This document shows positions 17,925 through 28,199 of a stretch of 64,000 bases of DNA, in pieces (the stretch's first letter is position 1; every line of letters begins with the position of its first letter). The DNA comes from an uncultured Planctomycetaceae bacterium (GTDB lineage Bacteria; Planctomycetota; Planctomycetia; Pirellulales; PALSA-1355). The DNA is taken from positions 100,508-164,507 of the forward strand of contig CAWBTK010000005.1 of the NCBI GenBank assembly GCA_963791755.1, read 5' to 3'. A model generated the notes under the pieces. It was not told where the DNA came from and did not search any database. It saw nothing but the letters and a program-made list of their open reading frames with translations. Made by a program: the position numbers and the translations under genes.

Positions 17925-20002
17925 TTACTCGACCGGCAAGCGGGCAAACAAGTCGCCCAAGTACGGTTCGTAGTGCCTCCAACGACCAACCGAGCTCGAG
18001 TAAATCGGCTGCCGCACTTGCATGGCACTAGCTGTCCGCACCGCCCGTGGACTCCGATGAAACTCCAGGCAGGCCGGATTCCATTCCAACTGACAAGCGG
18101 CCACCAGTTCCCGCGCCACTCCCTCCAAGTCCGACACCGTGCGCTCGTACCGAATCTCGTGCAAAACCACCGGCAAAACCGCGCACCAATGGCTCATCAT
18201 TCGCAAGTGTTGCGAAAAACGAGAGGCAATATGCTCGACATCTCGGGCCCAATCCACCAGCTCGAACTCGGTAAGCCAGCACGACAAGGCGACGTCGCGC
18301 AAATCACGCCGGCAATAAATGAACGTGGCCCGCGGAAACAACGCCGCCAGCAGCCCGATCAACTGGTAATTCTGCGGGGATTTGTCGACAATTCGAGGGG
18401 TGCTGCCGCCATCAAAGGCCCGCAGCCCGTCCAGGTGCCGGGCAGCCAATCGCGAAATCGATCCCGAGTCCAATTTGCCGACGCAATCCAGCGGCGAGCC
18501 GGCGCCGCGGACCGTCATGGGAATGGCCTCGAACGTTTGCGGGCCCAGGAACAATTCGCCAGCCCCGTAAACGTCCGGGTGGCTTGCCAGGATTTGTTCT
18601 ACCAGGCTCGTGCCGGAACGAGGCAATCCGAACACGAAGACCGGCCGTTGGGTGGTTAATCCGGCCCCTTTGATTCGCGTAAAAAAATCGGCATCGAAGG
18701 CCCGCAACACTCCGTCGACGAACCGCGCAGTGCTCCGCGGGGCCGTGTTCACGCCCGCTGCGCCGAAGCCGAAAGTCATACGTCAATGCGTTCGCTCGTC
18801 GCGAATACTCCGCGGCCTCGGCGTATTGGCCGCGAGCGTCCAGCACATGCGTTAATGCGAACAGCAGGTGCGCCCGCGACTCGTCGTCCATTTGAGGGCT
18901 GGCGACATGGACCTTTAAGACCTCGAAATCACTTGGGGGCAATTTCGCGCCCAGCAAGAACGCCAAAGCGCCGTAGGGGCCCGACGCTTCTGGCCGCAGA
19001 CGTTGCGACGCACGGATCGCCGCCTCGGCCTGATCCTTGTCTCCCAAATCCTTGTAGAGATTTCCCAAACGATCGTAGGCTTCGGACAGATCCGGCTGCA
19101 ATCGCAGGGCCTCGCGATAGTGTTCGGCCGCTGCCTCGCTTTGGCGCTGTTTTTCCAGCGCCTGGCCCACGACGACGTGGCCGCGCGCTGCGGGGCGGAA
19201 TCTTGGCCAGCGCGCTCCAACATTTCGCGGCCTCTAGCGGGTCTTGTCGTCGCTCGTGCAACTTGGCCAATTGTTGTAAATACACCGGATTCTCCGGTTC
19301 CAGCGTCAGGGCCGTTGTCAAACGGCGCAAAGCGTCGTCAAGCTGCCCGGACTGCTCCAGCACGAGGGCCAGGTTGGCATGCGCCAAAGCCATCTGCGGG
19401 TCCAACGCAATGGCTTGCAGATACGAGGCCTGGGCCTCTGCCAGGCGACCGAGACCATGCAGCGCATTGCCTAAATTGCGGTGCAATTCAGCAGCCCCCG
19501 GCGACGCTTGCACGGCCAACTGTAAGTGCGGCAGTGCCTCGGCTGGCCGCGAAAGCTCCAACAACAGCCGGCCCAGACTGATGCGACCCCGAATAAAGTT
19601 GGGGTCCAGCGCGACGACTTGCTGCAAATAGCCGAGTGCTTCCTCAATCCGCCCCAATCCCCGTACCGCCAGCCCCAGCGTGCACAGCGCCTCGCGCGGA
19701 TCGGCCGACAGGGCCAGTGCCGCGCGACAATTCGCCTCGGACGCTTCGAACTGGCTCAAGCCCCGCTGCGACTCGGCCAGGCTTACGAGAAATGCGGCCG
19801 TTTGTGGCTCCAGAGCAACGGCGCGCGAGAAAAACTCGACAGCCTCCGCGTATCGATTTTGCTGGTGCCGCGTGATGCCCAGCAAGTGCCAGGCGACGGC
19901 ATTTCCCGGCTCCTGCGCTACAAGCGCCTCATAGAGCGGGATTGCCTCGGCCAGTCTGCCCGCCCGGTGGGCCGCCAGCGCTGTTGTCAATGAATCTTGC
20001 AT
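17925..20002 (-). CDS. TPR-repeat / sulfotransferase fusion protein, two 1-nt insertions (near 19192-19195 and 18772-18774)
   Basis: ORFs 18929..20245 (TPR; ATG at 20002 = MQDSLTTALAAHRAGRLAEAIPLYE), 18412..19170 (TPR) and 17925..18779 (sulfotransferase). The sulfotransferase part has PVFVFGLPRSGTSLVEQIL, a PAPS-binding P-loop-like motif. The three pieces read through once a C in a C4 run and a T in a T3 run are removed. Confidence 0.8.
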
Positions 20003-20439
20003 AAAATCGCAATCGAAGCGGCTTGGAGCGACCATTCGGCCCCAGGTTCCACAAGGCCCTCGAGCACCCGGCGCGGCACACTCTCTGCTCGCGCGAAAGA
20101 CACCGCCGACGTCGAATTCGACGACGCACGCGAGCTTGCGCGCTCCATTGTGATCTTGGTCTTCGACGAACGGAACTGTCAACTCACGTTCGGCGCGATT
20201 CGCCCCTGTTTTTTGGGCATTTTCGACGATTTTTGCATGCGGCATCCGGCGCTCCGCGGCAGCGGTTTTCGAGCGCCTCTCGCCGTTGCTCTCGATCGGC
20301 TGAGGTTGCTTCCAGACACGAGTACGAGAAAAACGACTGTGGGCGCCATCCTCTCAGCGTTAGCGGACCCGCGAGCGGACTCGGAAGACGCACCCGGGGA
20401 AAATACTCGGTTTTTTTGAAATTTTTTTCCCGAAGCTAG

Positions 20440-20601: not shown

Positions 20602-23600
20602 ATGAATCGCAAATCTCTCTTCGGCCGCCTTTCGGCTTCAACGATTGTAAGCCGACCAGCCGAGCGCCAATCATATTTTCGTTTGCAGCTCGAGCCGCTC
20701 GAAGACAGAAAGCTGCTCACGGTGGCGACCACCTACGTTAACGACAACTGGTACGATACGTCGACCACCGATGGTATTGTCCGCCCTGGCGACGGGATGA
20801 TAAACCTGAATGACACGATTAATCCTGGCGCCATCTTCGGGACGTACGGCACCAGCGCGTTCGGTCTCGCCACGAAATGGAACGGCGGGTCGATCTCAAG
20901 TAACCCAACTAACTATTCGACGACCGCCTACCAGACGATTCATGCCGCCATTCAGGGCACGAACCTGCTGAATGGCTCGGTCGATATTCTTGAAGGAACG
21001 TACAAAGAGTCGGACATCGTCATCGATCGCCCGCTGGCCTTTACCGGTGCCGGCAAGACCGGCGCCACCCGCACGCTGATCATTCCGGAAGACACCGCGA
21101 CTTCGGCGCTTGATGATTCGCAGGATTTCCCCGCCGGCATTCGCGAAGGCATCATCATTTATTCGCCCGACGTGACGGTCAGCAACATCGCGCTAGACGG
21201 CAACGGCAATGCGACGACCACCGCCAATGCCGGCCACACGCTCAACTACCACCAGGGCATCACAACGCTGTACGATCCGTCCATCGGAACGTACAGCTCG
21301 CTGCGTGACGGAAACCTGATTCCAAAGCGCTTGGGAAATCCGGTCGACTCTGTCGCGACTCGCACCCGGGCCAACATTGCCGTGCAGGATGTCGCGGTCA
21401 GCAATGTCTACTTTCACGGCATTACGCTGTCGGCTCTTGCCGGCGAACAGTGGGGCACCAACAACGGCGCGGGCCAGAACGTTGATCGGGCGATCGTGAC
21501 GAACGTCGGCGACGTCGACGGACTGCACACTCAAAACGAAAAACATGTCGGTATCTTGATTCAGAACGTCGACAACGGCCCGTTCGGCGCCCCGGCCGAC
21601 GGTAACATCCGCTACTCGACCGTCACCAACGCCGGCACCGGCATCAAGACCGGCGTTTTTGGCACCGCAAGTTACAATTCGCAAGCCGCTGCCCGCATCC
21701 GTGCCGGCATGATCCAGAACACCGTCATCGACGCCGTCAAACGCGGATATGAGATGGACTTTATGGACGGCAGCGAAGGCCTTCGTGGCAACGTCGCCAC
21801 GTTTAACAACCTCAGCAACAATGCCGAAGGCGTCTACCTCAACCACTCGCGAGCCCTGCTCACCGGCTTTGTGATCAATGGCGCCAAGGTCGGTATCCAT
21901 GTTCAGAACACGCCGCTCACCGGATCGGAAGTCGTGATCCTGGGCATCGGCGGTAACATCTTTACGGGCCCCGGCACGGGCGTCGCCGGCTCGGTCGGTC
22001 TGTTGATCGACAACTCGGCCTCCGAGTCCGACTCGTCCCGCGTCATGCTGGGTTCCGGCACGACGATCTCGGGATACCAGACTGGCGTTCGGGCCGAGCA
22101 AGTCGTACCCGACACCGTGGCCACCGACGGGTCTGGTCATACGGCCAGCCGTATCGAACTCGACATGGCCAATCCTAGCTTCGGCGTCAATGGCACCGGC
22201 ATCGTGTTGGGCAACGGCGCAACCATGTTCGGCAACTATAGCGGCACCTCGTCGTTGACGACCACCGGCAGTGCCATCGTTTCGCCGGGATATCCCAACT
22301 GGGCCAACTATGCTTACCTGGTGCCCGGCAATACAGGAAAGGACCAGAATCCCAGCACGGAGAATTCGCCGGCATTCTTGGCGCCCCCAACTTCCGACGT
22401 CATTAATACCGGTTCCGTCGCCCTCAACAGCGCGACTACGTTCACGCCGTTGCTCACGAATCAAGCGGGTACCACCCCGCTGTTCAATTTCAACGCGGCT
22501 TTGAACTTCCCGTTTGCGTTGGTTCCCGACGCGCCGAACGAAGCCTTGGTGCCCAGCCCCAACGGCGTGCTCTTCAACTGGTACGGTAACCTGACCCAGG
22601 ACGGCTCGGGCACGATCGTCTTGGGCGGTACGGCCACGAACGGCAAGGGTTTGGACTACGCCTTTGCTGGAAACAACAGCGGCCCGATCCCGAATACGAC
22701 TCCCACCCTGTATCAACTCCAGGGAACCGACATCAGCAACCGCACGACGCTGAATATCGTGGCCAAGAAACTGGCCACTAACCAGGCCGAGACCATTGGT
22801 ATCGGTTTGTTCGACGTTCGCGGAAATGCCAACTTGTGGACGTTCAAGATGGCGGACCTCAGTTCGACCGCCTACACCACGCTCAAGGTCAACCTGCTCG
22901 CGCCGTCGATCGACTTGACCGGGCCGGACAGCCATATCGACTTGACGAAGATTGCCGGCTGGGTGTTTGGTGGCGATCAGGGCGCGGTCAACGGAAATCA
23001 GAACGTGCCCCTCGGTTTCATTGTCGACGACATGTACGCCGACAGCATCGGCAGTTCGCAGTTGAATGTGACCGGAAGCGTGAACCTGGGATTGTCTACG
23101 TTGAATCTGTCAGCGTCGCCAACCTTCGTGCCTTCCGCCGGCCAGCAGTTCGTCATCGTCAACAACGATGGTGCGGACGCGGTCACCAGTTCGTTCGCCG
23201 GATTTGCTCAGGGTTCGACCACCGTCATTGGCGGCCATACGTTCTCGATCAGCTACACTGGCGGAACCGGAAACGACGTAGTCCTGACCGAAGAGTCCCC
23301 GATTCTGGACCTCAACGGCGCCAGCGCCGGCACCGGATTCACAAACGATTGGTCGAAGATCCTTGCCGCACCGGTCGACATCACGGCTTCATCCGCCGCG
23401 ACGGTCAACGATGGCGGCGGCACGCTGGTCTCGCTGTCCGCCCAGATTACCAACTGGCACACCGGCGACATCCTGTTGGCCACGCCTCCCGGCGGCAGCG
23501 GCATCACCGCCAGTTGGAACGCCGGCACCAATACTTTGCAGCTCACCGGCTCGTCGAGCGCGGCCAACTACCAGACGGCTCTACGCTCCATCAAGTACAA

Positions 23601-26600
23601 CAACTCGGCCGGCGGCGCTGGCGTCAGCCCGGTCAATATCACCGTCACGGCCAGCGACGGCACGTACACCAGCGCCCCGGTGCTGGCGACGATTACCGAT
23701 CCGGCTCCGCAGCTCGATTTGAACGGCGCGACGGGTGGCACGGGCGGTCAAGCGGCCTGGACTGTCGGCGCCGGCGCGGTCAATATTACCGAGGTCGATG
23801 CGACCGTTACCGACGCCGACGACACGACCCTGGCCTCGATGACCGCCACGATCACCGTTGGGGTGAATATCAACAATTCGCTCACGTTCGATACCACCGG
23901 AACTTCGATTACCGGTACCTACAATGCCGGTACCAGCGTATTGAGCCTCACCGGCACGGATACGATTGACCACTATCAGCAAGTTCTGCGCACGATTAAG
24001 TACAACAACAGTGGCGACCCGGGCGTGAACGAAATTCGCGTCAGCTTCGTCGCCAGCGACGGCGTCGTGACCGGACCGGCGCAACTGTCGATCATCACCG
24101 TCAACCTGCCCTTGGTCGTCGACCTCGCGGGCACGGCCGGCTTGGACAACACGACGAGCTGGGTCAACAACGGTCCGATCAACATCGCCGATATCTCTTC
24201 GGCAATCGTGACGGACACCGTCGACGGGTCGCCCGATAACATCGTGATTACGATCACCAATCCGCACGCCGGCGACATCCTGACCGCCACGGACTCCGGT
24301 GGCGTCACGTCGTCGTGGGACGCGACTAGCAACACGATGACTCTCACCGGCAATGTGGCGGCCGCCAATTATCAAACTGTGTTGAGAACGGTCAAGTACA
24401 ACAACACATTCGGCGGGCCGGGTGTTTCGGTCAACGTCGGCACGGTGAACATTAACGTCGTCGGGCACAGCGGAGCCGTGACTTCGCGCACCGCGGTGTC
24501 GCACATTGTCGTTCCACCAGTGATCGATCTCAACGGCACGACTGGCGTTCAGTCCGCCGGCAACGGCTTCAACGCGACCTGGTCGAACAGCGGTTCGATC
24601 AGCATCACCGATACCGATGCAACCGTGATTTCGCCGGGGCGGCCGAACTTGATCTACATGACGGTCAAGATCACCCAAAACGGCACCAACGGCATCACCG
24701 AGTTCCATACCGGCGACGTGCTGACCGCCAGCACGGCGGGCTTGCCGATTACGCAGACGTACAGCAACGGCGTGTTGACCCTCACGGGCGAAGCCACGCC
24801 GGCCCAGTACCAACAGGTATTGCGTACCATCAAGTACAACAATACCAATGGCGGTCCCGGCGCCGGGGCTCAAATCTTTGTCGAATTCCTGACCGATGAC
24901 GACGACCACAAGAGCACCGTGTCCACTTCGACGATCACGATTAGCGTCCCGTTGTCGGTCGACCTCAACGGCCCGTCCGGCGGAACCGGCTTCATCAACA
25001 ACGTCAGCCCTTGGACGACGTCCGGATCGCCTCAGGCTCCGTTGAGCGCGACAACCGCTCGAGTTACCGACACGGGCGGCACCGATTACACCACAGCCAC
25101 GGGTCGAAACCTGACCTCGATGACTGCGACGATCGGCACCGACCTGGCCAAGAGCGGCGGCGTGCATCAGGGGGACATCCTGACGGCGACCAGCTTGGTC
25201 GGCGGCATCACCCAGAGCTACAACGCGCTGACCGGCGTGTTGACCCTCACCGGCAACAGCTCCTCGGCCAACTACCAGACCGTGTTGCGGAGCATTCGCT
25301 ACGACAACAGCAGCGCGTTTGGCGGACCGGGCGCCGACTTCGTGTATATCTGGTTCGTGGGCGTGGACACGCTCAATATTCACAGCAACGCCGCGCTGGG
25401 ACAACTCGATATCAACTCGAAGGAGAATATCGACCTGAATGGACCGGCGGTGGGTAGTGACTACGCCACCACCTGGACCAACTCCGGTCCGGTCAATCTG
25501 ACCACCAACGATGCCACGGTGAAGGACGGCGATCGGGCTTACCTGACGTCGATGACCGTCAACATCGGCAATCCGCACGCGGGGGACGGGCTCTCGGCGA
25601 TCGTCACCGGCACGAACATCGACGTCCAGGGGATTGGCTCCACGCAGTTGGTCTTCAACGCCAAGCCGCCGCTCAATACCGATGAGTTGGTGAACTGGCA
25701 GACGGTTCTGCGTAGCGTCCAATACTTCAATACCTTGGGCGGTCCAGGAGTGGGTCAGGTCTTTATTGACTTTGACTACACCGACAGCTTCGCGGCGGTC
25801 GGCACCACTCGAACCACGACCGTCAACATTAACGTTGTGTCTAATCAACCACCCGCCCTCGACTTGAATGGCGGCGTGGCGGGCACGGGCTTTGGCTCGA
25901 CGTGGACCAATACCGGGGCCGTCAACATCACCGACGCGGCTGTCGCTGCCGTCACCGATTCGGACAGCGCCAACCTGGCCTCGATCACGGCCACGATTAC
26001 CGGCGGCGCAAACGCCAACAATGTGCTGTCGGCTACCACCACCGGCACGTCGATCTCGGCGAGCTACAACGCCGGGTCTGGCGTCTTGACCCTCTCGGGT
26101 TCGGACACCTTGGCTCACTACCAGCAAGTTTTGCGAACTGTCAAGTACAACAATACCGCCGGTGGACCGGGCGCGGGCCCGGTGACGGTCAGCTTCGTCG
26201 CCAATGACGGTGCTCTCAACAGCACGCCCGTCGTGGCCACGATTTCGACCCGCACGGCTTCCGTTGCCAAACAGTTGCTGTTCTACAACCAGTCCGGCAC
26301 GTCGACTCGTTATGACCACAACGATCTGGCGATCAACTCGTTCGACGACTTGGCCATCGCCACCGACAAGACGGCCTACACGTGGGAGAATCCGGGTGCG
26401 GCCACGTTTGCCAACGTCTCCAGCTACACCAAGGGGATCAACGGCATCATGGTCGATATCGCCGGGCCCCACGGCACGATTACCGCCGCCGATTTCATCT
26501 TCCGCGTTGGTAATAACAACTCGCCCGGTTTGTGGACCACGGCCAATGCTCCTACCAGCATCTCGGTGCGGGCTGGGGCCGGCGTCAGCGGCTCGGATCG

Positions 26601-27285
26601 CGTCGAGATCATCTGGAACACCGGTGCTCCGTTCAAGCAGTGGCTCGAGGTCATTACCTTGGCCACCGACAACACGGGTCTGCCGCAGAAGGCCGGCTAT
26701 CCGGCGGGTCAGGCCGACGCGTTCTTCTTCGGCAATGCTCCGGGAAATACCGGCACCGGCGATACGGGATCCAACTCGCTGGTCAATTCGCTCGATGAGG
26801 CCGCCATCCGGGCCAACAACGCCTTGGTGAACGCGAACATTCCGATCACGAACGTCTACGACGTGGGTCGCAATGCCAGCGTGAACGTGGTCGATGAAAG
26901 TGCCGCTCGTTTGAACGGCACCAACCCGTCGACCACGCTCAAGTACCTCAACCTCACCACGGCTCCGGCGGCCCCCGAGGCCGACGGCGGCGATGTCAGC
27001 CCCTTGGTTGCGGGAGACAGTGCCTCTGGCGACAGCGGCGTGGCTTCGGCCTTGACGGCCTCGGCGCCGACGGCCGCCCCGGCTGGCCTGCCAAGGTGGA
27101 TTTTGAACCGGCTGGATAGCGTCGACCTGAATTCGGGCACCCCGGCCAAGTTGTTCCAGCACCTGCACGACGTCAACATGCCGGCCACTCGAGCCTTGCT
27201 ACAGAAGTTCGATGCCGCGGCGGATGCCCTGGGTCTGGACGACGAGCTGCTGGACTCGCTGCTGGCCGATTTGGGATTGGAATAG
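20602..27285 (+). CDS. giant (2227 aa) secreted surface/adhesin-like protein: N-terminal LEDR motif, parallel beta-helix region, 7 tandem ~135-157-aa modules, C-terminal planctomycete-type domain
   Basis: A single uninterrupted ORF. N-terminus: MNRKSLFGRLS...FRLQLEPLEDRKLLTV. Beta-helix-like segment: ILEGTYKESDIVIDRPLAFTGAG.... It also has FSISYTGGTGNDVVLTEE and seven LDLNG...YQxVLRxIKYNN modules. C-terminal region: KQLLFYNQS...GINGIMVDI...GSDRVEIIW...FFFGNAPGNTG. Confidence 0.9.
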   Translation: MNRKSLFGRLSASTIVSRPAERQSYFRLQLEPLEDRKLLTVATTYVNDNWYDTSTTDGIVRPGDGMINLNDTINPGAIFGTYGTSAFGLATKWNGGSISSNPTNYSTTAYQTIHAAIQGTNLLNGSVDILEGTYKESDIVIDRPLAFTGAGKTGATRTLIIPEDTATSALDDSQDFPAGIREGIIIYSPDVTVSNIALDGNGNATTTANAGHTLNYHQGITTLYDPSIGTYSSLRDGNLIPKRLGNPVDSVATRTRANIAVQDVAVSNVYFHGITLSALAGEQWGTNNGAGQNVDRAIVTNVGDVDGLHTQNEKHVGILIQNVDNGPFGAPADGNIRYSTVTNAGTGIKTGVFGTASYNSQAAARIRAGMIQNTVIDAVKRGYEMDFMDGSEGLRGNVATFNNLSNNAEGVYLNHSRALLTGFVINGAKVGIHVQNTPLTGSEVVILGIGGNIFTGPGTGVAGSVGLLIDNSASESDSSRVMLGSGTTISGYQTGVRAEQVVPDTVATDGSGHTASRIELDMANPSFGVNGTGIVLGNGATMFGNYSGTSSLTTTGSAIVSPGYPNWANYAYLVPGNTGKDQNPSTENSPAFLAPPTSDVINTGSVALNSATTFTPLLTNQAGTTPLFNFNAALNFPFALVPDAPNEALVPSPNGVLFNWYGNLTQDGSGTIVLGGTATNGKGLDYAFAGNNSGPIPNTTPTLYQLQGTDISNRTTLNIVAKKLATNQAETIGIGLFDVRGNANLWTFKMADLSSTAYTTLKVNLLAPSIDLTGPDSHIDLTKIAGWVFGGDQGAVNGNQNVPLGFIVDDMYADSIGSSQLNVTGSVNLGLSTLNLSASPTFVPSAGQQFVIVNNDGADAVTSSFAGFAQGSTTVIGGHTFSISYTGGTGNDVVLTEESPILDLNGASAGTGFTNDWSKILAAPVDITASSAATVNDGGGTLVSLSAQITNWHTGDILLATPPGGSGITASWNAGTNTLQLTGSSSAANYQTALRSIKYNNSAGGAGVSPVNITVTASDGTYTSAPVLATITDPAPQLDLNGATGGTGGQAAWTVGAGAVNITEVDATVTDADDTTLASMTATITVGVNINNSLTFDTTGTSITGTYNAGTSVLSLTGTDTIDHYQQVLRTIKYNNSGDPGVNEIRVSFVASDGVVTGPAQLSIITVNLPLVVDLAGTAGLDNTTSWVNNGPINIADISSAIVTDTVDGSPDNIVITITNPHAGDILTATDSGGVTSSWDATSNTMTLTGNVAAANYQTVLRTVKYNNTFGGPGVSVNVGTVNINVVGHSGAVTSRTAVSHIVVPPVIDLNGTTGVQSAGNGFNATWSNSGSISITDTDATVISPGRPNLIYMTVKITQNGTNGITEFHTGDVLTASTAGLPITQTYSNGVLTLTGEATPAQYQQVLRTIKYNNTNGGPGAGAQIFVEFLTDDDDHKSTVSTSTITISVPLSVDLNGPSGGTGFINNVSPWTTSGSPQAPLSATTARVTDTGGTDYTTATGRNLTSMTATIGTDLAKSGGVHQGDILTATSLVGGITQSYNALTGVLTLTGNSSSANYQTVLRSIRYDNSSAFGGPGADFVYIWFVGVDTLNIHSNAALGQLDINSKENIDLNGPAVGSDYATTWTNSGPVNLTTNDATVKDGDRAYLTSMTVNIGNPHAGDGLSAIVTGTNIDVQGIGSTQLVFNAKPPLNTDELVNWQTVLRSVQYFNTLGGPGVGQVFIDFDYTDSFAAVGTTRTTTVNINVVSNQPPALDLNGGVAGTGFGSTWTNTGAVNITDAAVAAVTDSDSANLASITATITGGANANNVLSATTTGTSISASYNAGSGVLTLSGSDTLAHYQQVLRTVKYNNTAGGPGAGPVTVSFVANDGALNSTPVVATISTRTASVAKQLLFYNQSGTSTRYDHNDLAINSFDDLAIATDKTAYTWENPGAATFANVSSYTKGINGIMVDIAGPHGTITAADFIFRVGNNNSPGLWTTANAPTSISVRAGAGVSGSDRVEIIWNTGAPFKQWLEVITLATDNTGLPQKAGYPAGQADAFFFGNAPGNTGTGDTGSNSLVNSLDEAAIRANNALVNANIPITNVYDVGRNASVNVVDESAARLNGTNPSTTLKYLNLTTAPAAPEADGGDVSPLVAGDSASGDSGVASALTASAPTAAPAGLPRWILNRLDSVDLNSGTPAKLFQHLHDVNMPATRALLQKFDAAADALGLDDELLDSLLADLGLE
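23305..26250 (+). repeat. seven tandem in-frame coding modules inside the giant gene
   Basis: The [LIV]DL[NA]G module starts are at 23305, 23713, 24118, 24523, 24958, 25429 and 25858 (spacings 405-471 nt). Each module ends with ...A.YQ.[AV]LR[ST][IV][KR/Q]Y[NDF]N...GGPG....[IV].[VF]...DG. Confidence 0.85.
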
Positions 27286-27373: not shown

Positions 27374-27539
27374 AAAGTCCAACATTGAGTTTTAAGGGGC
27401 TTCGTCCCCTATTGGGTGGCTTAGATGACAAGGATGTCCCAAGGTTTTGTGTGACGGCGAGGGATCGGGGATTGACGTTCAGTCCAACCCGCGCCATGAA
27501 GTGAACAACGTGAAAATAAATCCAAAAAGGAGCGCGTGT

Positions 27540-28199
27540 ATGCAACGAACAGTTGGTTTATCTCTTGCCATCCTGCTCTGCCTGACGGCAGTTGCCCAGG
27601 CTGTGCCTACAGTTGTGGTTGGCAATCACATCTTGCAGCCGAATATGGCGGGCCAGACGATTCAGATCAGCGTGAGCGGCATTGTCCCCAATGCCACCAC
27701 GAGCCCAGCCGACGACAGCAATGTGAACGGTGGGTTGTTTTCCTTTTCTGTGGACGGCGGCGGACCGAATTACGGCAATCCGGCCGGCCCGATCATTACC
27801 AACATGGACTTCTTGTCGGGTCCCACCATTTGGGTAGCCCCGAGCACTCCGTCCGGTATTGGTACTCCGGCTGACTACTACGACCCCAGCAACCAGTTGG
27901 CTAGCTCTGGCTTCCTGACGCTGTCAAATGGTTTCGTTAACGTCACCGGCGGTTTGCTGGTCACGTTGACGATTGACACGACCGGCTTTGGTCCGGGCGT
28001 GCACGGCTTGGAGATGATTAGCCTTGCTTTGGAAGACCAGACCGGTGTGACGCAGTTCACCGGTGGTAACAGCGTGCAGGACATCACCAACGGCCAGATC
28101 ACCATCGTCCCCGAGCCTAGCTCGGTGGTCCTTGGCTTGTTCGCGGTCGCCGGTTTGGGCGCTGTTGCAATCCGCAAGCGTCGTGCCCGTCGTGCCTAA
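27540..28199 (+). CDS. PEP-CTERM-anchored secreted protein (219 aa)
   Basis: ATG at 27540 with an AAGGAG RBS 8 nt upstream. Signal peptide: MQRTVGLSLAILLCLTAVAQA. The C-terminus ...ITIVPEPSSVVLGLFAVAGLGAVAIRKRRARRA is a PEP motif, then a TM helix, then a basic tail. Confidence 0.85.
   Translation: MQRTVGLSLAILLCLTAVAQAVPTVVVGNHILQPNMAGQTIQISVSGIVPNATTSPADDSNVNGGLFSFSVDGGGPNYGNPAGPIITNMDFLSGPTIWVAPSTPSGIGTPADYYDPSNQLASSGFLTLSNGFVNVTGGLLVTLTIDTTGFGPGVHGLEMISLALEDQTGVTQFTGGNSVQDITNGQITIVPEPSSVVLGLFAVAGLGAVAIRKRRARRA

Follow-up and report, generated by a model that had tools for sequence, protein, structure and literature searches.

The Locus and Its Seven Tandem Modules

The stretch of DNA analysed here, referred to as the window, comprises 64,000 nucleotides from an uncultured Planctomycetaceae bacterium (assembly GCA_963791755.1, contig CAWBTK010000005.1, positions 100,508 to 164,507 of the forward strand), and the subject of the analysis is a giant gene in which seven copies of a protein module follow one another in tandem and probably form a stalk (Table 1). 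The entire repeat region, from position 23305 to 26250, translates as one open frame within the open reading frame (ORF) of that gene. The product is acidic, with an isoelectric point of 4.4, and contains no cysteine; the identical protein found in NCBI/ENA (P0201) is recorded on a contig of 2.1 Mb.

A preliminary description of the sequence had proposed seven modules in tandem and, in fact, exactly seven full copies were recovered, over residues 902–1884, when a hidden Markov model (HMM) built from the modules was run against the 2227-aa protein. No eighth copy was found elsewhere in the protein with this HMM, nor in the 64-kb window by a six-frame scan. All 21 pairwise BLASTP comparisons among the modules were significant, with E-values from 6e-10 to 2e-42 and identities of 34–60%. 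The lengths of 135–157 aa that had been proposed hold for modules 1 to 6, module 7 being shorter, with 131 aa. Likewise, the motif strings needed revision, since as written they matched only 0–3 of the seven modules. In loosened form, [LIV]DL[NA]G.{6,16}W, [YW]Q..LR[ST][IV].Y.N and G[GD][PA]G were each matched by all seven modules, L.L[TS]G by six and H.GD by five, and the 'DG' that had been thought to close every module is present in only three of them. The residues kept among the seven copies are mostly hydrophobic, glycine or structural, and the loops differ in both length and sequence.

At the DNA level, only short stretches could be aligned between modules, with 68–80% identity, and Tandem Repeats Finder reported no array at the module region. 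A DNA-level tandem repeat was consequently rejected, the repetition being one of protein sequence only. Because the copies have diverged to this extent, they are regarded as old duplications and not as an assembly artefact, as the preliminary description had held, and the record of the identical protein is in line with this conclusion.

Table 1. Features of the giant gene and of its product; positions are those of the window.
Feature	Position	Strand	Residues	Remarks
Whole gene	20602..27285	+	2227 aa	Predicted secreted or surface protein; identical protein P0201 in NCBI/ENA
N-terminal 'Planctomycete extracellular' motif FRLQLEPLEDRKLLT	20680..20724	+	27–41	PF07595, sub-threshold (14–15 bits)
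Head	20959..22281	+	about 120–560	Boundaries approximate; probable right-handed parallel beta-helix (low-confidence model and Foldseek)
Middle region	22282..23046	+	about 561–815	Probable CBM11-like jelly-roll, placement inferred
Small beta domain	23047..23304	+		Ends '...FSISYTGGTGNDVVLTEESP', directly before module 1
Module 1	23305..23712	+	902–1037	136 aa
Module 2	23713..24117	+	1038–1172	135 aa; the copy modelled: beta-sandwich with one helix, pLDDT 93
Module 3	24118..24522	+	1173–1307	135 aa
Module 4	24523..24957	+	1308–1452	145 aa
Module 5	24958..25428	+	1453–1609	157 aa; two loop insertions
Module 6	25429..25857	+	1610–1752	143 aa; most diverged copy
Module 7	25858..26250	+	1753–1883	131 aa; nearest to the family consensus
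C-terminal region	26251..27282	+	1884–2227	'LLFYNQS...GINGIMVD' domain, dockerin-like loops, Pro/Ala-rich linker, end motif LGLDDELLDSLL

An Unnamed Module Family of Giant Bacterial Proteins

Each module was searched against Pfam at E ≤ 10, and the whole protein was scanned with both Pfam and NCBIfam. It had been anticipated that no clean match to a well-characterised family would emerge, and this was borne out, with no entry covering the module in Pfam, in NCBIfam or among PDB sequences. In NCBIfam, three modules gave no match at E ≤ 10 and the whole protein gave one irrelevant match of 12.7 bits; the repeat families of that collection (T1SS-143 repeat, tandem-95 repeat and Ig-like repeats) were matched neither by the whole protein nor by those three modules. 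When all PDB sequences were searched with the profile of the seven modules and with the profile of a broad 43-sequence family, no match was obtained. In Pfam, none of the seven modules matched Cadherin (PF00028) or Cadherin_4 (PF17803) at E ≤ 10.

The broad family HMM was built from 43 seed sequences, three of which are modules of the window, and it was matched over its full length by all seven modules, with E-values from 5e-21 to 2e-48. By this profile, the modules are assigned to an unnamed family, defined here and characterised by the pattern 'LDLNG...YQxxLRxxxYxN'. An exhaustive profile search started from the window modules and covering 1.84 billion cluster representatives (50% identity) retrieved 10,578 proteins at E ≤ 1e-3, of which 1,584 remained with the stricter limit of E ≤ 1e-30. 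A total of 1,952 modules was counted in the best 150 of these proteins (median 12, maximum 42 each), and the module period is mostly 130–140 aa (120–150 aa overall). Additionally, a scan of one genome per species yielded 411 loci with the module, distributed among Planctomycetota, Gamma-, Beta- and Alphaproteobacteria, Cyanobacteria, Chloroflexota, Acidobacteriota and Nitrospirales, the closest being found in a metagenome-assembled genome (MAG) of Planctomycetia, with 75% identity.

In these relatives, the module is accompanied by DUF4347, true cadherin repeats, Cadherin_4, TSP3, FG-GAP, He_PIG, PKD and Big_13 domains. It was also observed after an arylsulfotransferase domain (PF05935) in P0003, a protein of 480 aa, and singly or in pairs between blocks of ELWxxDGT repeats in P0211, of 1496 aa. 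From the contexts in these two proteins, it follows that the module works as a connector whose partner domains can differ greatly. The carriers are publicly named 'Ig-like domain-containing', 'DUF4347 domain-containing', 'tandem-95 repeat protein', 'Ca2+-binding RTX toxin-like' or 'hypothetical', which supports the earlier suggestion that the YQ..LR..Y.N signature belongs to a module of giant bacterial surface proteins. Cluster look-ups returned no informative names, and full-text literature searches returned no paper naming or describing the module. The module family is very large, is common in giant bacterial surface proteins and has no curated Pfam or NCBIfam model of its own.

One MAG, 'Planctomycetaceae bacterium palsa_1355', holds about 25 of the loci (L002–L026, L037 and L056), many of which stop at contig ends. 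Therefore, the family is considered to be strongly expanded in this genome, where it appears to break the assembly.

Predicted Fold and Conserved Positions

An AlphaFold2 model was computed for module 2, extended by 12 residues on each side, from an alignment of 39 modules, and reached a mean predicted local distance difference test score (pLDDT) of 93.1 and a predicted template modelling score of 0.86. The model is a probable Greek-key beta-sandwich of ten strands, seven of them long, with one helix. This helix, 'IDHYQQVL', corresponds to the YQxVLR motif and sits between the strand 'VLSLTGTDT' and the short strand 'KYNN'. Foldseek searches of the PDB with the model returned Ig-like, cohesin and many cadherin extracellular (EC) domains, with probabilities up to 0.99–1.0; no close structure was found among them (query-based TM-score ≤ 0.5), and the likeness is weak. 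According to the model, the module is predicted to fold independently as a cadherin-like Greek-key sandwich of about seven main strands with a helix between strands E and F, which agrees with the cadherin- or Ig-like fold suggested in the preliminary description.

Conservation was assessed by aligning 492 full-length modules of the 150 best proteins. The family columns include Phe24-Thr-Glu26 (Glu in 71%), Asp42 (95%), Asp44 (83%), an acidic or amide residue at position 64 (99%), Leu66 (95%), Gly90 (92%), the helix Tyr97-Gln-x-x-Leu101-Arg, Tyr106, Asn108, Pro113 (88%), Arg118 (94%), Asp126-Gly127 (97% and 81%) and Ser131 (83%), followed by an Asn-Asp-x-Pro linker whose three fixed residues are conserved in 59–67%, 49–64% and 80–87%, respectively. 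In cadherins, the Ca2+-binding motifs occur in the order xEx, DxD, DRE, xDx and DxNDN. The order of the family columns (Glu, Asp-x-Asp, acidic, Asp-Gly and Asn-Asp-x-Pro) parallels it and, since the conserved residues mirror the order of those motifs, Ca2+ probably stiffens the generic members of the family where successive modules meet.

Counterparts of most of these motifs are present in the generic relatives, whereas the complete set is not found in the window modules. Here, position 24 is Trp in all seven copies in place of Phe or Tyr, Glu26 is present in none, and Arg118 is likewise absent from all, being replaced by Ile or Val. The Asn-Asp linker is also missing from all seven modules, which have Pro-rich linkers instead, and 'GGPG' takes the place of 'sdnPst'. 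As Glu26, Arg118 and the Asn-Asp-x-Pro linker are each lost from every copy, the window modules constitute a distinct variant. The putative Ca2+-binding Asp clusters that had been looked for are thus only partly present: Asp10 is kept in seven modules and Asn12 in six (both within LDLNG), Asp42 in six, Asp or Asn at position 64 in seven and Asp126 in six, while Asp44, which completes DxD, is found in only three or four. The variant therefore probably lacks a full set of Ca2+ ligands, and its rigidity is likely to be less dependent on Ca2+ than that of generic modules, or independent of it.

The distribution of the two forms was counted among 80 loci kept from the genome scan of 411. The window-type variant was found in four Planctomycetia MAGs, of which palsa_1355 has at least 61 window-type modules, and the generic form occurs in every other lineage, other Planctomycetota included. 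The module was also matched on short contigs of approximately 1.9–3 kb (L018 and L023) binned as 'Betaproteobacteria bacterium SOY_31_concoct_354', and the one full-length module recovered from them is of the window type. Both these contigs and the closest Planctomycetia MAG derive from sample SOY_31, and a binning error is probable. Moreover, modules without Arg118 are mostly also without Glu26 (22 of 29 in one set and 74 of 76 in another), and this joint loss suggests that the two residues may interact in generic modules.

Relation to the Calsyntenin C-Terminal Family

The only curated family matched by the modules is PF19699 (CLSTN_C), the C-terminal family of calsyntenins. The whole protein scored 39.2 bits against it, above the cut-off of 27, as a sum of partial matches around positions 165–229 of the 354 in the profile, and single window modules scored 12–16 bits, below the cut-off, through the segment 'LTLTG..YQxVLRxIKYNN'. 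Among bacterial relatives, scores up to 106 bits were reached, and 22 of the 43 family modules match. In the opposite direction, the bacterial module HMM was run against a fragment of the human calsyntenin-1 ectodomain, which was validated by a full-length match of 712 bits to PF19699. Two matches were obtained, with 33.7 bits in total, the first at '...LVLTLEGEDLGELDKAMQHISYLNS...' (also given as '...LVLTLEGEDLGELDKAMQHISYLNSRQFPTPGIRRLKIT') and the second at '...MTFTGVDTMASYEEVLHLLRYRNW...' (also given as '...DLDTCEVTVEGEELNHEQESLEVD...GIEVSSSELGMTFTGVDTMASYEEVLHLLRYRNWH').

The reciprocal HMM matches and the high Pfam scores of bacterial relatives indicate that calsyntenins may contain two degenerate copies of the module core. 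Membership of the modules in PF19699 was rejected, since the homology is restricted to that core, only part of the profile is covered and the surrounding protein is of another kind; in particular, the calsyntenin-type arrangement of a transmembrane helix and an acidic cytoplasmic tail following the region was not found in the 2227-aa protein. It is proposed only tentatively, at somewhat less than even odds, that the juxtamembrane ectodomain of calsyntenins contains two cryptic, degenerate repeats homologous to the very large bacterial family. To our knowledge, the C-terminal stretch of calsyntenins has no established function and no solved structure. If the proposal is true, both a fold and a hypothesis on Ca2+ sites would be obtained for it from the bacterial family, and the window variant would represent a natural form in which the presumed Glu26–Arg118 pair and the Ca2+ linker have been replaced, giving a Ca2+-independent stalk.

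Head, Tail, Collinear Homologues and Neighbouring Genes

Six homologues, P0202 to P0207, are collinear with the window protein from the N-terminal motif through the head and the middle region to the C-terminal region, with 30–48% identity over these parts; P0205 is truncated at its N terminus. The number of modules varies among them, with one module in five of these proteins and none in P0207. Module 7 of the window protein is 58–66% identical to the single modules of P0202, P0204 and P0205, and is nearer to them than to most of its six siblings, the closest of which is module 2 (59%). Module 7, which adjoins the tail, is thus the counterpart of those single modules, and the array grew by old internal duplications. 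Module-to-tail junctions were also seen in two fragments, P0007 and P0008. The combination of a beta-helix head, modules and a planctomycete C-terminal domain, which had been called unusual, is accordingly not unusual within its lineage, being shared by five collinear homologues, with the sixth differing in the lack of a module.

Within the N-terminal PF07595-type motif, L33, E34, R36 and L39 are invariant in the alignment of homologues, and this 'Planctomycete extracellular' motif is the sole one in the window. The whole N terminus (20602–20724, residues 1–41), of the form 'MNRKSLFGR...LEPLEDRKLL', is conserved in the five homologues in which this end is complete. For the head, no Pfam or PDB-sequence match was found. 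A model of residues 1–901, built by AlphaFold2 from an alignment of seven sequences, displays short strands in a rung-like pattern over the head, and its Foldseek matches in the PDB were uniformly beta-helices (phage depolymerases and tailspikes, the K1 capsule lyase, the PfbA adhesin and AlgE4). The same model gave matches to CBM11 with a probability of 1.00 and target-based TM-scores of 0.45–0.49. Since the model has low confidence, these matches are indicative only, and the beta-helix and the CBM11-like fold are taken as an indication that the head may be directed to glycans. In the small beta domain, Y885, G888, N891, D892 and V893 are invariant in the homologues.

The C-terminal region is conserved in all six collinear homologues and in the fragments P0007 and P0008. 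It has no Pfam or PDB-sequence match beyond a weak one to FG-GAP_3 (E 0.11), and no Pfam Dockerin match. Around residues 2060–2130, two loops, 'GDTGSNSLVNSLDEAAIRAN' and 'YDVGRNASVNVVDESAARLNG', may be read as dockerin-like; they are degenerate in the window protein and clearer in homologues, as in 'WDINRDGAVNANDQLAAKI' of P0206 and 'YDVNKDDQVDATDQIFTRN' of P0207. The extreme end (27238–27282, residues 2213–2227) carries the acidic motif LGLDDELLDSLLADLGLE. DDxLLDxL-like ends are present in all six collinear homologues, and a motif of this type occurs once in the window; it could be a sorting or secretion signal. Taken as a whole, the C-terminal domain probably mediates attachment or sorting.

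Ten flanking ORFs were scanned with Pfam, and the only matches were to a tetratricopeptide repeat (TPR) protein, a PEP-CTERM protein and a HAD hydrolase. The TPR-repeat protein, of 438 aa, is encoded upstream and divergently on the minus strand (18929–20245). Directly downstream of the giant gene, on the plus strand, a 250-aa ORF (27447–28199) ends in a C-terminal PEP-CTERM motif (PF07589, E 1.2e-5), and its product is another exported or sorted protein. Five plus-strand ORFs between 14349 and 19631 overlap other ORFs and have no Pfam match, so that some of them may not be genes. No operon logic was apparent among the neighbouring genes.

A Probable Stalk of Adjustable Length and Its Alternatives

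The explanation considered best, with a probability of about 0.6, is that the seven modules act as a stalk or extender, determining how far a glycan-directed head stands from the conserved C-terminal domain in a secreted or surface protein of planctomycetes. According to this model, the independently folding beta-sandwich modules would be joined in tandem into an extended stalk or spacer, which would be approximately 30 nm long if each module spans about 4–5 nm, like a cadherin repeat. The stalk would hold the N-terminal head apart from the C-terminal attachment or sorting domain, and the number of modules would determine the reach of the protein, which could be adjusted during evolution, as suggested by the presence of 0, 1 or 7 modules in collinear proteins. 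A stalk of variable number is favoured because the collinear homologues keep both the head and the tail with one module or with none, and it is as expected of a spacer that the number of modules changes freely while the architecture otherwise stays fixed. Of this picture, the repeats, the family size, the predicted fold, the variation in copy number and the loss of conserved residues are results of the analysis; the stalk function, the binding of Ca2+, the choice of the anchored end and the sugar-binding role of the head are inferred.

Several observations weigh against this explanation. The sequence likeness to classical cadherins is minimal: in an hhalign comparison of the family alignment with six classical EC repeats, a probability of 5% was obtained over 28 columns, corresponding to the last strands and the linker, and it is because of this value that the module was not classed as a cadherin. 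No hydrophobic signal peptide was recognised in the 2227-aa protein (Kyte-Doolittle maximum of 0.57 at the N terminus, window of 15), nor any transmembrane helix (maximum of 1.6 with a window of 19, located inside a beta-strand). As neither a signal peptide nor an anchor is recognisable, the protein is placed at the surface on the grounds of the planctomycete N-terminal motif and of its domain content. In addition, the confidence of the head model is low, with a pLDDT of 54 overall and of 60–89 over residues 260–560, and the clustering of conserved Asp and Asn residues at the module junctions is itself putative. Finally, the modules could bind ligands themselves, given that the related CHDL domains of RapA2 type are reported to be Ca2+-dependent lectins (PMC5061743, PMC9298526).

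This last point leads to an alternative in which the modules would be adhesive or lectin-like elements, Ca2+-dependent like RapA2/CHDL and binding polysaccharide or each other, so that seven copies would raise avidity and not reach. Cadherin_4, which we take to be the RapA2-type family, was matched by 10 of the 43 generic relatives, in a stretch covering the module junction and the half that follows it, with a best E-value of 7.8e-6, and the other domains of the window protein look glycan-directed. The Rap CHDL domains are reported to be Ca2+-binding lectins for exopolysaccharide (PMC5061743, PMC9298526). However, neither Cadherin_4 nor Cadherin was matched by the window modules themselves, half of the putative Ca2+ ligands have been lost in the window type, and what is conserved between the copies is mostly structural, with the loops varying in length and sequence. 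Furthermore, the collinear homologues work with a single module or with none. A lectin role of the modules is consequently regarded as unlikely, and a slightly lower likelihood is attributed to a rod of the strict cadherin type, in which two or three Ca2+ ions per junction would be bound through Asp10/Asn12, Asp42, Asp44, Asp/Asn64 and Asp126. Such a rod would agree with the retention of most of these residues in at least six of the seven copies and with the order of the acidic columns in the family, which parallels that of the cadherin motifs, but Asp44 is kept in only about half of the copies, and Glu26 and the Asn-Asp linker, present in 71% and about 65% of the family, respectively, are completely absent from the window modules.

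It was also considered whether the repeat region could result from repeats collapsed or expanded during assembly, or could be a spurious ORF in DNA of high GC content, with the true gene lying on the minus strand, where an ORF of 1195 aa (23581–27168) runs antisense to the repeats. This long ORF does overlap the region, and repeats of the module family often end contigs in MAGs. Against this, the copies are only 33–60% identical and have diverged as DNA, the plus frame is an uninterrupted ORF of 2227 aa with homologues conserved in head, module and tail, the model of the module is confident, and the identical protein is recorded on the 2.1-Mb contig. An artefact is thus extremely improbable, being excluded by the DNA divergence, the uninterrupted plus-strand ORF and the conserved homologues, and the antisense ORF is most likely spurious, a by-product of the high-GC repetitive coding sequence on the plus strand.

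The preliminary description had linked the module signature to giant RTX-type adhesins. A reading of the protein as such an adhesin, of the type I secretion system (T1SS) class, was rejected, since it has no glycine-rich RTX nonapeptide repeats, with no RTX or HemolysinCabind match in the whole-protein Pfam scan, and no T1SS neighbours, with no Pfam match to ABC transporter, membrane fusion protein (MFP) or TolC families among the ten flanking ORFs, and since its N terminus carries the planctomycete motif and not the retention module of such adhesins.

Comparison with Known Systems

The giant gene is regarded as encoding a modular secreted protein with a stalk repeat block, and not a new machine. 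The proposed function is therefore ordinary, and what is new is a huge family without a model of its own, its relation to calsyntenins and a lineage-specific variant. At present, Pfam detects this domain of more than 10,000 clusters, which often makes up most of a giant protein, only by way of an accidental partial match to the C-terminal family of a metazoan protein, and its carriers take their names from other domains. A dedicated profile would provide annotation for a large share of the unannotated sequence in giant bacterial surface proteins, as well as a testable structural model for the juxtamembrane region of calsyntenins, and the planctomycete variant offers a natural comparison for the Ca2+ dependence of such stalks.

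In the RTX/Bap adhesins, extender regions made of Ca2+-rigidified beta-sandwich repeats project the binding domains, and the extenders of LapA, SiiE and BapP follow the same logic as that proposed here, with many tandem Ig- or cadherin-like domains in variable number that carry the binding region outwards (PMC12153261). By analogy, the stalk of the window protein would work like the extender regions of giant adhesins without their RTX and T1SS features: it differs from them in the lack of RTX, T1SS-143 and tandem-95 matches in the whole-protein Pfam and NCBIfam scans and in its planctomycete N-terminal motif. The bacterial CHDL domains (Cadherin_4, PF17803; Cadherin_5; Big_9; as in RapA2 and in Bap/RTX proteins) are also tandem beta-sandwich repeats of giant secreted proteins, and they have in common with the generic modules a 'vNDaP' linker, the 'tE' and 'TDxD' motifs of the first half and putative Ca2+ sites at the junctions (PMC12153261). 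However, nothing in the CHDL families corresponds to the latter half of the module (LTLTG, the YQxxLR helix, Y.N and P....R), the module is longer, with about 135 aa against about 70–100 aa for CHDL-type domains, and the window modules do not match these families.

The classical EC repeat (PF00028) and the module may have a seven-strand Greek-key sandwich in common, and they resemble each other in the order of the acidic positions and in an ending of the form 'v.v.D(G)...s.....i.v..vND.P'. EC structures were among the Foldseek matches of the module with probabilities of 0.6–0.99, though with TM-scores of only 0.26–0.43. The module differs from the EC repeat in having a helix in place of the LDRE segment and, in the window type, in lacking equivalents of xEx and DxNDN. 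With calsyntenins, it shares the core 'L.L.G....Y..vL..i.Y.N', which runs from strand E through the helix to the short strand that follows, but only about 50–90 of the 354 positions of the PF19699 profile are covered. In addition, the calsyntenins are metazoan type I membrane proteins, whereas the bacterial modules are complete domains of about 135 aa arranged in long tandem arrays.

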